Positions 2,423-10,633 are shown, counted from the stretch's first letter. The stretch: DNA of 10,633 nt from a virus (IMGVR_UViG_2548876964_000002), one strand, 5' to 3'. Translations and numbers: made by a program. The notes: generated from the sequence alone by a model not told the origin.

Positions 2423-2561
2423 GACCTTTCTCCTTCTGCATCAGCTTCACTTTTTCCAACTCAGCCCGGAATCGACCAGGCTGCTTGAAGCTGGACAGGA
2501 AGCGATCACGTAGTATGTGTTTGTGAATTTTGTCCTGGTAAGGACTGAGTTGTTTTGTCAT
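2415..2561 (-). CDS. Small hypothetical protein (48 aa) between cII and the O-like gene
   Basis: Not in the supplied ORF track (under its length cutoff). ATG at 2561 with AGGAG 5 nt upstream; stop TAA at 2417..2415 overlaps the O-like start. Translation: [48 protein letters not shown]. No family recognised. Confidence 0.4.
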
Positions 2562-2593
2562 AATTACTCCTGTGGATTGATCCAGTAATTCCC

Positions 2594-2890
2594 TCAGAAT
2601 TGCATATCAATTTGCTTAAAATCCTCGGTGGCAGCCGGGGATTTTTTCTTTGTGATTTCATCAAGCGCATACTTAAAAGCCCTGCTAATCGGACTGATGT
2701 CTGATGCCATTCCGAAAGCACACAAGACCGAAGCAATAAATCTCCAGTCCGTTCTGCTTATCTTCGATTCATGACAGCCAATCATCTTTGCCAGACCGCG
2801 CTGGGTAAGCGTTGACAGGTTGATGAGTAAATCTGTTTCTGCGCGATCAACGTCGCGCTGTGATAGTTTGCTGTAACTTGTTTGTTCCAT
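2594..2890 (-). CDS. cII: CII-like transcriptional activator
   Basis: 98-aa ORF immediately downstream of cro and nutR. C-terminal [18 protein letters not shown] parallels the recalled lambda CII tail KKRPAATERSEQIQMEF, and the central HTH region is similar in layout. Confidence 0.85.
2623..2650 (+). terminator. Rho-independent terminator antisense to the cII 3' end (oop-RNA-like)
   Basis: Stem cctcgg/ccgggg (one G-U pair), 6-nt loop, then attttttctt. It lies on the plus strand inside the 3' end of minus-strand cII, matching the placement of the lambda oop terminator. No convincing promoter was found upstream. Confidence 0.45.
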
Positions 2891-2975
2891 TTCTTAAGAT
2901 TTCCAGTAGTGAATAGTTAGTTGAAAGGTATGCGTGGAAACGCATATGGCCTTAGTTGGTCAGATATCTTGGAAC

Positions 2976-3021
2976 TCGCTTTTCAGCGACGTAGGACGAA
3001 TGTCCGTTGTTACAAAGAGCG
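2976..3021 (-). promoter_or_regulatory. nutR-like site (boxA plus hairpins)
   Basis: Minus-strand reading: CGCTCTTTGTAACAAC (boxA-like), hairpin GGACATTCGTCC, spacer TACG, then TCGCTGAAAAGCGA (5-bp stem, GAAA loop). Sits between cro and cII and mirrors the nutL arrangement at 4219-4265. Confidence 0.6.
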
Positions 3022-3031
3022 GATCCGCTTA

Positions 3032-3247
3032 TTAAGCGGCTTTGTGTTCCGGCGGGAACACGTCATCAAGACTGACTTTTGCGCCTAACTTGTTTAGGCA
3101 CGCAACAAGAGCACGGCATGTTTTAAGGTCTGGGAAGCGACGACCAGATTCCCAATGTCCGATAGCTCCCTGTGTGCATCCAACTGCCTTAGCAAGTGTT
3201 GTTTGAGAGATATTCAGTGACTCTCGATATTTTCGTAGGTTGCTCAT
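3032..3247 (-). CDS. cro: Cro-like HTH repressor (71 aa)
   Basis: Divergent from cI and followed by nutR and cII. ATG at 3247 with GGAGG upstream; HTH motif QTTLAKAVGCTQGAIGHW. The ORF-track extension to 3418 is rejected because it runs through the promoter region. Confidence 0.8.
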   Translation of the reverse strand: MSNLRKYRESLNISQTTLAKAVGCTQGAIGHWESGRRFPDLKTCRALVACLNKLGAKVSLDDVFPPEHKAA

Positions 3248-3273
3248 ATGCCCTCCATAGTAACCATAACGCA

Positions 3274-3302
3274 ATAATACGATATGTACTTTTAGAATGC
3301 AA
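3274..3302 (-). promoter_or_regulatory. PR-like sigma70 promoter driving cro
   Basis: On the minus strand: -35 TTGCAT (3302..3297), 17-bp spacer, -10 TATTAT (3279..3274), about 30 nt upstream of the cro ATG. Operators are expected here but could not be delimited by eye. Confidence 0.55.
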
Positions 3303-3358
3303 ACAAAAAATACATCTTGTGCATGGATGATTTTAGTACAGAGCGTAATAATAAGGGT

Positions 3359-4018
3359 ATGAAAATGAAATGGTATGAACTGGCTAGATCCAGAATGAAA
3401 GAGCTCGGCATAACTCAAGAGAAGTTAGCCGAAGAGCTTGGTATGACGCAGGGTGGAATTGGTCACTGGTTGCGCGGATCTCGTCATCCATCTCTTGACG
3501 AGATTGGTGTGGTGTTTAAATACCTTGGTATTGATAACGTCTCATTCAACCACGACGGTACATTTTCACCTGTTGGCGAATACTCATCTGCCCCCGTTAA
3601 AAAACAATATGAGTACCCTGTTTTTTCTCATGTTCAGGCCGGTATGTTCTCGCCTGAGCTTAGAACCTTTACCAAAGGTGATGCGGAGAGATGGGTCAGC
3701 ACAACCAAAAAAGCCAGTGATTGTGCGTTTTGGCTTGAAGTTGAAGGTAATTCCATGACCGCGCCAACAGGATCCAAGCCAAGCTTTCCTGACGGGATGT
3801 TAATTCTCGTTGACCCTGAGCAGGCTGTTGAGCCAGGTGATTTCTGCATAGCCAGACTTGGTGGTGACGAGTTTACCTTCAAGAAACTGATCAGGGATAG
3901 CGGTCAGGTGTTCCTACAACCACTAAACCCGCAATATCCAATGATTCCATGCAATGATAGCTGTTCCGTAGTAGGGAAAGTTATCGCCAGCCAGTGGCCT
4001 GAAGAGACATTTAGTTAA
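3359..4018 (+). CDS. cI: CI-type prophage repressor with LexA/S24-like autocleavage domain
   Basis: C-terminal ~135 aa ([36 protein letters not shown]...[12 protein letters not shown]) matches the lambda CI C-terminal domain as recalled, almost residue for residue. N-terminal HTH ([22 protein letters not shown]) is unlike lambda. Start is ambiguous among ATGs at 3359, 3365 and 3317; 3359/3365 are favoured. Confidence 0.9.
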
Positions 4019-4050
4019 CAGCCTCACCACTCTAAAACACACAACAATAA

Positions 4051-4078
4051 CCCGACCTTAGCGTCGGGTTTTCTTTTT
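4051..4078 (+). terminator. Rho-independent terminator after cI
   Basis: Stem cccgac/gtcggg with a 6-nt loop, followed by ttttcttttt, about 33 nt past the cI stop. No rexA/rexB-like ORFs lie between cI and PL. Confidence 0.65.
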
Positions 4079-4144
4079 CCAAAATATAAACCCATTAAAT
4101 ACAAAGCGTTATAAAAAACTAAACCATATTTAGAACATTTTGTA

Positions 4145-4173
4145 TTGACTCAGTAAAGTACACATCGTACTAT
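4145..4173 (+). promoter_or_regulatory. PL-like sigma70 promoter
   Basis: -35 TTGACT (4145-4150), 17-bp spacer, -10 TACTAT (4168-4173), in an AT-rich tract upstream of nutL and N. OL operators are presumed to overlap but were not defined. Confidence 0.65.
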
Positions 4174-4218
4174 TTAGCTATCAGCAGGAAGCTGGAAGCC
4201 AAACGGAACAGACTGGCA

Positions 4219-4265
4219 GGCTCTTTAAACAACGTCGAACACTCGACTACGTGGCTGAAAAGCCA
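4219..4265 (+). promoter_or_regulatory. nutL-like site (boxA plus hairpins)
   Basis: GGCTCTTTAAACAAC (boxA-like), hairpin GTCGAACACTCGAC, spacer TACG, then TGGCTGAAAAGCCA (5-bp stem, GAAA loop). Same tripartite layout as nutR. Confidence 0.6.
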
Positions 4266-4290
4266 GATCACCCAACCACATAAGCTGTGG

Positions 4291-4338
4291 GATGCAATGC
4301 CGAAGCAACCGTCTCAGGAGGGGCTTCGAGATTGCATC
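4291..4338 (+). other. Large imperfect hairpin in the N leader (candidate RNase III or translational-control element)
   Basis: gatgcaat (4291-4298) pairs with attgcatc (4331-4338) and cgaagc (4301-4306) pairs with gcttcg (4323-4328), leaving a 16-nt apical loop. Lies between nutL and the N Shine-Dalgarno; lambda has an RNase III-sensitive hairpin in the equivalent leader. Confidence 0.45.
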
Positions 4339-4363
4339 GCCAAAGTTTATTCGGGAGGAATCT

Positions 4364-4636
4364 ATGTCCAGAAAAACAGAATTTAAAGGAACCGCAGCTT
4401 CTCGCCGTAGAGCTCGTCGTGCAAATCTGCAAAGTCAGGAGGCGATCAGCTCCGACAAGCTACACAGGCCAACCCCTTCACGAGTGGTCTTGCAATGCAA
4501 GCGCAAACCAGCAATGAGAGCAGAAGTGATAACTCTGACAACGTTGACCAGAAAATATGAAGGTTCAACTTGTCTTCCGAACGTAGCCATTTACGCGGCA
4601 GGCTACCGGAAATCAAAACAACTGACGGCGAGATGA
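4364..4636 (+). CDS. N: N-like transcription antitermination protein (90 aa)
   Basis: First gene after PL and nutL; GGGAGG Shine-Dalgarno before the ATG at 4364. Arginine-rich motif near the N-terminus (TAASRRRARRANLQ), as in boxB-binding N proteins. The track's upstream start at 4292 falls inside the leader hairpin and is rejected. Confidence 0.75.
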   Translation: MSRKTEFKGTAASRRRARRANLQSQEAISSDKLHRPTPSRVVLQCKRKPAMRAEVITLTTLTRKYEGSTCLPNVAIYAAGYRKSKQLTAR

Positions 4637-4694
4637 CTTGTGTTGGTCGCCAGAAAATGAAATTAGGCAGCAAACCACTTATTTGAGGTGAGAT

Positions 4695-4781
4695 ATGGAA
4701 GAAGAATTTGAAGAGTTCGAAGAGCATCCGCAGGATGTGATGGAACAATACCAGGACTATCCGTATGACTACGACTACTGA
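4695..4781 (+). CDS. Small hyper-acidic peptide (28 aa), lambda orf28-like
   Basis: MEEEFEEFEEHPQDVMEQYQDYPYDYDY, preceded by GAGGTGAG Shine-Dalgarno; the 3' end overlaps the ral start. Same position and size as the small ORF recalled between N and ral in lambda. Under the track's length cutoff. Confidence 0.5.
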   Translation: MEEEFEEFEEHPQDVMEQYQDYPYDYDY

Positions 4782-4965
4782 TAAAAATCAATGGTGTGGA
4801 CAATTCAAGCGATGCAATGGATGCAAGCTGCAATCGGAATGCATGGTTAAGCCTGAAGAAATGTTTCCTGTAATGGAAGATGGGAAATATGTCGATAAAT
4901 GGGCAATACGAACGACGGCAATGATTGCCAGAGAACTTGGTAAACTGAACAACAAGGCTGCCTGA
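4765..4965 (+). CDS. ral: Ral restriction-alleviation protein (66 aa)
   Basis: MTTTTDKNQWCGQFKRCNGCKLQSECMVKPEEMFPVMEDGKYVDKWAIRTTAMIARELGKLNNKAA matches the lambda Ral sequence as recalled, including the Cys-rich motif. Confidence 0.8.
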   Translation: MTTTTDKNQWCGQFKRCNGCKLQSECMVKPEEMFPVMEDGKYVDKWAIRTTAMIARELGKLNNKAA

Positions 4966-5030: not shown

Positions 5031-5501
5031 ATGACAAAATCATGGAGCGTACCTTTTCCTGAATCAGAAACTGAACATGATGGAATGCCTGTTTTCTGGA
5101 GATTCCAAGCGACAGTTGAAGAAGATGGAATCAAAATATTCGCACTTCAATATATAGCTTTTCATCAGACAGATCATTATGCATGGTTGGTTCCTGCGCA
5201 TTGGATTGTTAATTTTAAACCAGCACCAAATCAGTGGTTACAGGAATGGAAACAAAGGAGAAATAGATATGCAATTAAGAAAGTAGCAAAAAATGCCGAA
5301 AGATCTTTTGCATTCCCGACGAAGAAACTTGCCATTGAAAGTTTATTGCGCCGGAAGAAGTACCATTTAATGAGAATCAAACAAGATTTGGCTGTTGTAT
5401 CAACTCTTGTTGATGGGATGAAGAATATTGATACATCAATACCAGATATTGAATATAACTTTGGACACAACCAAGAAACAGAAAATTGGGTGTTTTATTA
5501 G
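5031..5501 (+). CDS. Hypothetical protein (156 aa), visibly AT-rich, moron-like, no recognised family
   Basis: Clean ORF with GAGGTGAG Shine-Dalgarno and no predicted membrane segments. Composition is clearly more AT-rich than its neighbours by eye (not computed). Sits at the sieB / P22 gene 17 position and is bracketed by terminators at 4956-4982 and 5606-5631. Confidence 0.7.
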   Translation: MTKSWSVPFPESETEHDGMPVFWRFQATVEEDGIKIFALQYIAFHQTDHYAWLVPAHWIVNFKPAPNQWLQEWKQRRNRYAIKKVAKNAERSFAFPTKKLAIESLLRRKKYHLMRIKQDLAVVSTLVDGMKNIDTSIPDIEYNFGHNQETENWVFY

Positions 5502-10248: not shown

Positions 10249-10633
10249 TGAACCGCCCCGGAAATCCTGGAGACTAAACTCCCTGAGAAAGAGGTAAACA
10301 GGATGACTAAAAATACTCGTTTTTCCCCCGAAGTCCGTCAGCGGGCGATTCGTATGGTTCTGGAAAGTCAGGATGAATATGACTCACAGTGGGCGGCAAT
10401 TTGTTCCATTGCCCCAAAGATTGGCTGTACGCCGGAGACTCTGCGTGTCTGGGTTCGCCAGCATGAGCGGGATACCGGGGGCGGTGATGGTGGGCTCACC
10501 AGCGCTGAACGTCAGCGTCTGAAAGAGCTGGAACGTGAAAATCGTGAACTGCGCCGCAGTAACGATATCCTTCGCCAGGCTTCCGCTTATTTTGCGAAGG
10601 CGGAGTTCGACCGCCTCTGGAAAAAATGATGCC
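10249..10633 (+). mobile_element. IS3-family insertion sequence (IS629/IS1203-like), left end and OrfA; continues past the window
   Basis: Left terminus begins TGAACCGCCCCGG at 10249. OrfA follows, and ATGATGCC at 10626 matches the recalled IS629 OrfB start (MMP...) in the overlapping frame. Confidence 0.8.
10303..10629 (+). CDS. IS3-family transposase OrfA (HTH plus leucine-zipper subunit)
   Basis: 108-aa [25 protein letters not shown]...[35 protein letters not shown] matches IS629-type OrfA as recalled. Confidence 0.9.

Follow-up and report, generated by a model that had tools for sequence, protein, structure and literature searches.

Sequence analysis of a cI repressor gene of the Nil2/Stx-phage immunity type in a P22-like prophage of EHEC O111:H8

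Introduction

The window analysed here, a single stretch of 10,633 nucleotides from the virus IMGVR_UViG_2548876964_000002, holds a complete lambdoid early region that is reversed relative to the lambda orientation (Table 1). Its cI gene raises the question of what kind of repressor it encodes: the C-terminal part of the protein is that of lambda CI, the DNA-binding part is not, and the gene is not followed by rexA and rexB. A first-pass annotation of this DNA had read these features as a new chimera with the usual rexAB exclusion genes missing, their function being either lost or moved to another locus such as an AT-rich gene for a 156-aa protein. Our analysis leads to a different reading, to which we assign a probability of about 0.9: the window cI appears to be an intact repressor gene of the known immunity type of Nil2, Stx2 II, 1717, 2851, YYZ-2008, the PA-series phages and the P22-like coliphages, as part of a P22-like prophage located next to sbcB in EHEC O111:H8.

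A 2008 paper set out which domains make up this repressor family and predicted for it RecA-mediated inactivation as in lambda together with a different operator specificity (PMC2629481). In a 2022 survey, 'Clade I' unites lambda CI with a group of Stx-phage CIs whose overall identity is 61% (PMC8951638); judged from the text of that paper, the Nil2/Stx-phage CI type appears to correspond to this clade.

Results and Discussion

The features of the region are collected in Table 1. Domain content, identities, junctions and the operator motif with its conservation were read directly from the sequences, and the promoters and the terminator were recognised by consensus.

Table 1. Features of the immunity region and of neighbouring genes, in window coordinates.
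Feature	Position	Strand	Remarks
DnaB-type helicase gene; O-like replication gene	within window	-	
cII	2594..2890	-	Pfam Phage_CII, E 5e-32
CII-box TTGC-N6-TTGT (TTGCTGTAACTTGT), putative PRE -35 region towards cI	2868..2881	+	inside the 5' end of cII
cro	3032..3247	-	71 aa, HTH_3 all-helical type; Pfam HTH_3, E 4e-12
PR promoter for cro, TTGCAT-17-TATTAT or TTTGCA-18-TATTAT	3274..3303	-	promoter scan; annotated PR in AP005153; overlaps OR1
Putative operator OR1, TAATACGATATGTACTT	3275..3291	.	0 mismatches; over the -10 and spacer of PR; annotated in AP005153
Putative operator OR2, AAATACATCTTGTGCAT	3308..3324	.	2 mismatches, weakest; abuts the putative PRM -35; annotated in AP005153
Putative PRM, weak, TGGATG-17-AATAAT	3324..3352	+	by reading the sequence; maintenance promoter in AP005153
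Putative operator OR3, TAGTACAGAGCGTAATA	3334..3350	.	in the spacer and -10 of putative PRM; annotated in AP005153
cI repressor gene	3359..4018	+	219 aa from ATG 3359 or 217 aa from ATG 3365; stop codon counted in
cI head segment, immunity-specific, non-lambda	3359..3607	+	no DNA similarity to lambda
cI segment for the lambda-type hinge (cleavage site) and C-terminal oligomerisation/autocleavage domain	3608..4018	+	93.6% nt identity to lambda cI
Intrinsic terminator of the cI transcript	4049..4079	+	hairpin 4049-4070 plus T-run
Putative operator OL3, AAATACAAAGCGTTATA	4097..4113	.	pattern match; annotated in AP005153
Putative operator OL2, TAGAACATTTTGTATTG	4131..4147	.	over PL -35; annotated in AP005153
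PL promoter, TTGACT-17-TACTAT	4145..4173	+	promoter scan; strong PL-like; overlaps OL1 and OL2
Putative operator OL1, AAGTACACATCGTACTA	4156..4172	.	over the PL spacer and -10; annotated in AP005153
nutL-like site, boxA GCTCTTTAAACAA then boxB hairpin GTCGAACACTCGAC	4220..4247	+	by reading the sequence; hairpin in scan
N antiterminator gene	4364..4636	+	90 aa; Pfam N_peptide, E 8e-32
ral	4765..4965	+	
AT-rich 156-aa ORF	5031..5501	+	in the PL operon after ral; PHROG 1636
Erf-family recombinase gene, then further genes	after the 156-aa ORF	+	

Domains and start codon of CI

Pfam assigns an HTH_3 domain to aa 11-58 of the cI product (E 8.3e-11) and a Peptidase_S24 domain to aa 87-209 (E 8.9e-29). 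The start of the gene has been placed at three positions. The first-pass annotation took the first of two adjacent ATGs, at 3359, GenBank phage records use the second, at 3365 (217 aa), and PGAP begins the gene at 3323, inside OR2 and the PRM -35, which is probably an over-extension. The sequence AAGGG at 3353-3357 has the correct spacing only for the second ATG, while the predicted start of the PRM transcript, ~3359, coincides with the first; if this transcript start is right, the cI mRNA would be leaderless, as in lambda.

A lambda-type tail on a different head

Residues 84-219 of CI (the tail) align with residues 102-237 of lambda CI without a gap and with ~98% identity, three residues being different (BLASTP; lambda sequence from NC_001416), which bears out the lambda-like C-terminal domain that had been recognised in the ORF 3359-4018. 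In contrast, the first ~83 residues (the head) share only ~21% identity with lambda, roughly 16 of 76 aligned columns. In the DNA, homology to lambda sets in sharply at 3608 (TATGAGTACCC...) and extends to 4012, with 93.6% identity over 405 bases; no DNA similarity to lambda was found in cI upstream of 3608. Codon differences between the tail segment and lambda comprise 25 synonymous and 3 non-synonymous ones, hence the segment is under purifying selection.

The likeness to lambda covers the hinge and the whole C-terminal domain: the cleavage site Ala94-Gly95 and the dyad Ser132/Lys175 align with lambda A112-G113, S150 and K193 (precursor numbering). With an HTH domain, a Peptidase_S24 domain that contains the Ser/Lys dyad, and the Ala-Gly site in the hinge, the protein has the make-up of a LexA/CI-type autocleaving phage repressor. 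The tail matches the PDB chains 3bdn, 8gmu, 2ho0, 1kca and 1f39, solved lambda CI structures among them, with E values from 1e-63 to 1e-96; for the head, the closest solved structures are weak HTH_3 matches only. These alignments support the view that the window CI is mosaic relative to lambda, the lambda-type hinge and C-terminal domain being joined to a different HTH domain, and to this extent the chimera claim stands.

The relationship of the head to the Cro encoded next to it, which had been pointed out earlier, also holds: an alignment of Cro with CI aa 10-71 shows 35% identity over 62 residues (E 6e-11), and the motif TQG-IGHW, in the predicted recognition helix, is found in both proteins. 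Judged by sequence, Cro and the CI head are paralogues. This Cro is 100% identical to the Cro proteins of Nil2 and AP005153, its closest solved structure is 28tn_A (E 4.5e-17), and a GGAGGG Shine-Dalgarno sequence lies ahead of its ATG. When it is compared with lambda Cro position by position, without alignment, only 4 residues coincide.

The layout of the switch is shared with lambda, with a divergent cro, three operators at OR and three at OL, and a homologous terminator. The DNA-binding domain and the type of Cro differ, and the window, having neither the lambda CI DNA-binding domain nor lambda-type operators nor a lambda-type Cro, falls outside the lambda immunity group (imm lambda).

A comparison with HK97 places the joints precisely. 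Window positions 2552-3022 (cII and the nutR region) are 95% and positions 3608-4018 are 94% identical to HK97; between these flanks, 585 bases (3023-3607) comprising cro, OR and the cI head replace the 610-base lambda-type cassette of HK97. The right-hand joint of the 585-base cassette lies in the linker between the two CI domains. OL (4081-4200) is again of Nil2 type, and therefore the lambda-like tail and terminator form a patch between two Nil2-type operator regions. As the tail-coding segments of the window, Nil2 and lambda are mutually 91-93% identical, the exchange is not recent. The cI region illustrates the modular evolution of phages with textbook clarity, the immunity cassette having been swapped with a crossover in the repressor linker.

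Relatives of the known immunity type

The full 660-base cI is matched over at least 80% of its length, the limit used for counting, by 62 phage records with 92.9-99.5% nucleotide identity. The upper end, 98.8-99.5%, belongs to the P22-like coliphages vB_EcoP-683R2 (99.5%), vB_EcoP-720R6, Dewey, Louie and phi458, which differ from the window cI by a few substitutions (and, in 683R2, by one Cro residue). An identity of 92.9% is found for Nil2, the 'Stx1 converting phage' AP005153 (strain Morioka V526), Stx2 II, 1717, 2851, YYZ-2008 and the PA-series Stx2a phages. VT1-Sakai was also considered as a carrier of this CI type and was rejected, its CI tail being only 61% identical. The window CI and the CI of Nil2 (CAC95084; phage deposited as AJ413274) are 97% identical at the amino acid level from end to end, and none of the differing residues (D47, E48, V62, W111, C122, D200 and S219) lies in the predicted recognition helix.

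The head itself is 96-100% identical at the amino acid level in 63 phage records: the Stx-phage forms stand at 96.3% (78/81) and phi458 at 100%. The rule of thumb given by Casjens is that CI heads of less than 92% identity have different specificities (PMC2629481). More distant are the repressors of the Salmonella phages epsilon34 (gp46), g341c (C1) and SPN9CC, which unite the same head and tail families in one protein but are more diverged (head ~50-54%, tail ~79%) and for which a different specificity is predicted.

Nil2 and the Stx phages (Stx2 II, 1717, 2851, YYZ-2008, the PA series and AP005153) share with the window the two-domain CI, Cro, the six operator positions and the layout of PR, PRM and PL. 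With a near-identical CI head, the same Cro and the same operator set at OR and OL, the window belongs by sequence to the Nil2/Stx2 II-type immunity group. From these sequence relationships we conclude that its CI is of the already known Nil2/Stx-phage repressor type, and as a discovery the cI feature matters little. The type is common: the head-plus-OR DNA (3240-3607) is present in 776 of 5426 complete E. coli genomes, compared with 618 for the lambda-type cI head, so that in sequenced E. coli it is more frequent than the immunity type of lambda.

Operators and predicted specificity

A motif search of the control regions, which the first-pass annotation had proposed, gave six putative 17-bp operators, three at OR and three at OL, with partial dyad symmetry and the consensus AArTACA-N3-TGTAyTT. 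If no more than one mismatch is allowed, the pattern ANTACRNNNYGTANT is found 5 times in the whole window against 0.73 expected, and 5 is reached in 0 of 200 shuffles, although the count is partly circular, since the pattern was derived from the very sites that were then counted. All 5 matches fall in OR or OL. When 2 mismatches are allowed, no enrichment is seen over the whole window (10 found, 10.9 expected), so that the informative results are the clustering and the count made with one mismatch or none.

Two further lines of support are independent of this count. In AP005153, putative operators are annotated at the same six positions. Moreover, the substitutions between the window and AP005153 avoid the half-sites: the half-site core differs at 2 of 72 positions and the rest of the control region at 42 of 158 (Fisher p 3.6e-6). 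These 42 include 5 differences among the 18 positions of the central three bases and 35 among the 128 positions that no operator covers. At OR2, the central 3 bp alone differ between the window and the AP005153 lineage. The operator consensus proposed for the epsilon34 repressor, WTACRAWWTGTAT, has the same core as the window operators (PMC2629481), TACR-N3-YGTA in its epsilon34-type form.

The lambda operators are built of TATCACCGC-type half-sites and are unrelated to those of the window: no lambda half-site was found in OR or OL within 2 mismatches, the best having 3 mismatches of 9. A non-lambda immunity specificity, as the first-pass annotation had predicted, is thus well supported in silico.

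The geometry of the sites also departs from that of lambda. The distances between operator centres are 33 bp for OR1-OR2, 26 bp for OR2-OR3, 25 bp for OL1-OL2 and 34 bp for OL2-OL3, and inspection by eye found no conserved fourth site between OR1 and OR2. In lambda the corresponding centres are 24 and 20 bp apart; lambda-style pairwise cooperativity therefore cannot be assumed across the 33 bp of OR1-OR2 and the 34 bp of OL2-OL3. Further, OL and OR are separated by ~0.8 kb instead of the ~2.4 kb of lambda (NC_001416 coordinates), because the window has no rexAB. Given this geometry and this distance, the pairing rules may be different from those of lambda. The centre of OR2 lies at about -43 from the predicted start of PRM, a promoter that was missed by the generic promoter scan.

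Proposed mechanism of the switch

The following mechanism may be proposed. The HTH_3 head of CI would bind the six predicted operators, three over PR/PRM between cro and cI and three at PL, and from these sites would repress PR and PL. From OR2, beside the PRM -35, it would probably activate PRM, and at high concentration it would probably shut PRM off from OR3. Cro, with the same recognition-helix motif, would compete for the same operators. Since the hinge and the C-terminal domain are ~98% identical to lambda, the functions expected of the tail are dimerisation, pairwise cooperativity, OL-OR looping over ~0.8 kb and RecA-stimulated cleavage, the last presumably at Ala94-Gly95 by Ser132/Lys175. 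Self-cleavage of the lambda CI tail is established, and the near-identity of the two tails suggests that the window CI would likewise undergo RecA-stimulated self-cleavage on DNA damage. The cI transcript would end at the lambda-type terminator directly after cI, with the rexAB cargo slot empty. No experiments on the window CI protein were found in the searchable literature; we therefore infer DNA binding to the predicted sites, PRM activation, cooperativity, looping and RecA-dependent cleavage from homology.

A bolder version of this scheme is that the lambda C-terminal domain, placed on a different operator geometry, mediates cooperativity through the close pairs OR2-OR3 and OL1-OL2 and not through OR1-OR2, and that O111:H8 is immune to Stx2a phages of the same type. 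We hold this to be unlikely. If it were true, the same oligomerisation domain would serve a switch logic unlike that of lambda, with consequences for the order in which PR is repressed and PRM is activated and shut off, and the non-Stx prophage should make O111:H8 immune to many Stx2a phages of its immunity type. Independently of this, the immunity type is common to non-Stx P22-like prophages and to many Stx2a phages, and resident prophages may therefore influence which Stx phages lysogenise or are induced in EHEC.

The slot after cI

Lambda RexA and RexB gave no match in the window by tblastn (best E 1.0 and 1.8), and the stretch from the cI stop (4018) to PL contains no ORF. From the cI stop to N the window contains only a terminator, the PL-like promoter and the nutL-like boxA/boxB, which agrees with the earlier statement that rexA and rexB are missing and that cI is followed by a terminator and PL only. 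To call these genes usual was less fortunate. Among 50,697 phage records rexA occurs in 19 (lambda isolates, 434, SfI, ev243 and a few distant relatives), and it is present in 99 of the 5426 E. coli genomes as compared with the 618 that carry a lambda-type cI head; at least five-sixths of the latter are therefore devoid of rexA. HK97, with a CI nearly identical to that of lambda, has no rex and carries gp49/gp48 in the slot.

Other relatives fill the same place differently. The Stx phages with the window cI type have ~1.5 kb between cI and OL, including a 173-aa ORF (PHROG 2602), whereas the window has a 62-bp terminator segment only. In g341c and epsilon34, two other, unrelated ORFs follow the repressor gene, and Casjens and colleagues explicitly compared these two ORFs to rexAB (PMC2629481). 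The P22-like coliphage 683R2, the relative checked in detail, has the same terminator segment as the window and no gene between cI and N, the cargo slot being empty in both.

The most tenable alternative concerns how this slot came to be empty. Window positions 4041-4076, at the post-cI terminator, are 89% identical to the rexB stop and the terminator after rexB in lambda, the stem showing a compensatory G-C to A-T exchange; the hairpin folds with a dG of -12.4 kcal/mol (z -4.1). We did not find this homology between the cI terminator of the window and the rexB terminator of lambda stated in the papers that we consulted. It means that what the window lacks here in comparison with lambda is precisely the rexAB block, and as the lambda-like cI tail also ends at the stop codon, one may envisage a clean deletion of rexAB from a lambda-like cI-rexA-rexB-terminator operon, with the exclusion function lost in this lineage. 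However, rexA is rare and most genomes with a lambda-type cI do not have it, the unrelated cargo between cI and OL in the relatives fits a variable slot better than a single ancestral rexAB, and no rex remnant is seen in the 22 bases that separate the cI stop from the terminator homology. We regard such a deletion as possible, though rather doubtful. Because rex is rare and the occupants of the slot are varied, we favour the view of rexAB as cargo in a variable slot, while the homologous terminator alone decides neither for insertion nor for deletion. The absence of rexAB is real but ordinary: these genes are rare cargo and not a standard part of lambdoid immunity.

Prophage context

In several independent EHEC O111:H8 genomes, a P22-like prophage adjacent to sbcB matches the window with 100% identity. 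The prophage has P22-type head genes and, unlike the Stx phages, carries no stx in the region examined. Two IS1203 insertions are present in it, one in ninH and one near xis, because of which the prophage may be defective, with cI perhaps maintaining only a cryptic element. The same insertions could be taken as a sign that cI is itself a decaying relic that no longer acts as a repressor, but cI has kept an intact reading frame together with its catalytic and cleavage residues, the substitutions in the tail relative to lambda are overwhelmingly synonymous (25 to 3), the operators, PR, PL, the terminator and cro are all intact and conserved, and the region is 100% identical across the O111 genomes. 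We consider decay of the gene very improbable.

The 156-aa gene

It had also been suggested that the exclusion function was moved to the AT-rich gene at 5031-5501. The gene does stand out by its composition, 34-37% GC against ~45% nearby, and its place in the PL operon, following ral, is roughly that of sieB in lambda. On the other hand, AT-richness by itself is no sign of exclusion, and the protein has no match in Pfam or PADLOC; PADLOC likewise gave no match for Ral, the Stx-phage 173-aa ORF and three other early-left ORFs. The 156-aa protein falls in PHROG 1636, a family of unknown function, with homologues from Enterobacterales that are all named 'hypothetical protein'. An AlphaFold2 model built from 19 aligned homologues is unreliable (mean pLDDT 53.8, pTM 0.33). 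Accordingly, we give the proposed relocation of the function hardly any weight.

Finally, the idea that the gene is a new chimera defining a previously unseen immunity specificity, which can appeal to the mosaic protein if lambda alone is used for comparison, can in our opinion be set aside, as end-to-end matches to the full-length gene exist in 62 phage genomes including Nil2, 776 complete E. coli genomes carry the module, those phages share Cro and the operators with the window, and the domain composition of the family had been published already (PMC2629481, PMC8951638).

Further elements of the early region

The CII-box at the 5' end of cII is the one match in the window, a number within chance expectation (1.74), and its position, where lambda has PRE, is the sole argument for it. 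The element at 4220-4247 we take to be nutL by analogy with the established lambdoid nut sites, and a related copy of it lies on the cro side in relatives. Downstream of it, a GGGAGGA Shine-Dalgarno sequence is located 7 nt upstream of the N start codon at 4364.

Immunity cassette and operators

Judged from the nucleotide comparison, a 585-bp stretch comprising cro, the control region OR and the cI segment for the repressor head is a clean cassette replacement relative to phage HK97: the flanks, at 2552-3022 and 3608-4018 of the window, are 94-95% identical to those of HK97, and the right joint falls in the cI linker. The deposited structure PDB 28tn_A ('lambda repressor-like protein') matches Cro over its full length with an E value of 4.5e-17; a structural template is therefore available for Cro of the window and, distantly, for the CI head. 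The putative operators lie 33 and 26 bp apart, centre to centre, in OR (3275-3350), and 25 and 34 bp apart in OL (4097-4172), the two regions being separated by only ~0.8 kb. This geometry is unlike that of lambda, despite a cooperativity domain that is ~98% lambda-identical.

Coordinates of the features discussed (window positions unless a phage record is named)
Feature	Position	Strand	Remarks
cro	3032-3247	-	Close solved relative, PDB 28tn_A
Terminator	4049-4070		Directly 3' of cI, within the lambda-homologous stretch 4041-4076
156-aa ORF	5031-5501		PL operon, after ral; AT-rich, 34-37% GC
173-aa ORF	3662-4183 (AP005153, 'Stx1 converting phage'); 4162-4683 (phage Nil2)		PHROG 2602, function unknown

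Start codons of cI and N

Three cI starts are in use, at 3323, 3359 and 3365. The first, chosen by PGAP, falls within OR2 and the -35 element of PRM, the putative maintenance promoter, and is probably over-extended. The start at 3359, which the first-pass annotation took, would be leaderless if the putative PRM fires at ~3359, and that at 3365, used in the GenBank phage records, is preceded at good spacing by a Shine-Dalgarno sequence, AAGGG. Salmonella phage g341c likewise has the two adjacent Met codons.

Downstream of cI, the 'frameshifted hypothetical protein' pseudogene called by PGAP at 4164-4386 spans PL, nutL and the N leader, and is probably an annotation artefact. The N start annotated in Nil2 and the Stx phages corresponds to 4292 (114 aa), but the strong GGGAGGA Shine-Dalgarno sequence and the arginine-rich motif at the N-terminus agree with a start at ATG 4364 (90 aa; gene end at 4636).

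The rexAB slot and the small ORFs

Positions 4041-4076 are 89% identical to the lambda rexB stop codon and the terminator after it, with a G-C pair of the stem replaced by A-T through compensatory changes. Relative to lambda, what is missing between the stop codon of cI and the terminator of the operon is thus exactly the rexAB block. Stx phages that share this cI have the 173-aa ORF between cI and OL, in the slot occupied by rexAB in lambda. The ORF gave no match in a PADLOC scan; it is a candidate cargo gene expressed from the prophage and appears to be unstudied.

The 156-aa ORF belongs to PHROG 1636, of unknown function, and matched nothing in Pfam and PADLOC scans. Its homologues, found in Enterobacterales (Escherichia, Pectobacterium, Brenneria and Rosenbergiella), are annotated only as 'hypothetical', and the AlphaFold model of the protein is poor (pLDDT 54).

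State of the prophage

Two copies of IS1203 (IS629-type) interrupt the prophage, at 14130-15343 and 29303-30516 of the O111:H8 prophage-bearing sequence, and it may be defective. One copy sits in ninH. The other disrupts a small gene that lies between xis/int and the gene for an ASCH-domain protein; the end of the window (10251-10633) falls inside this copy. Some O111 genomes match the window just to 10250 and hence do not carry this second insertion.
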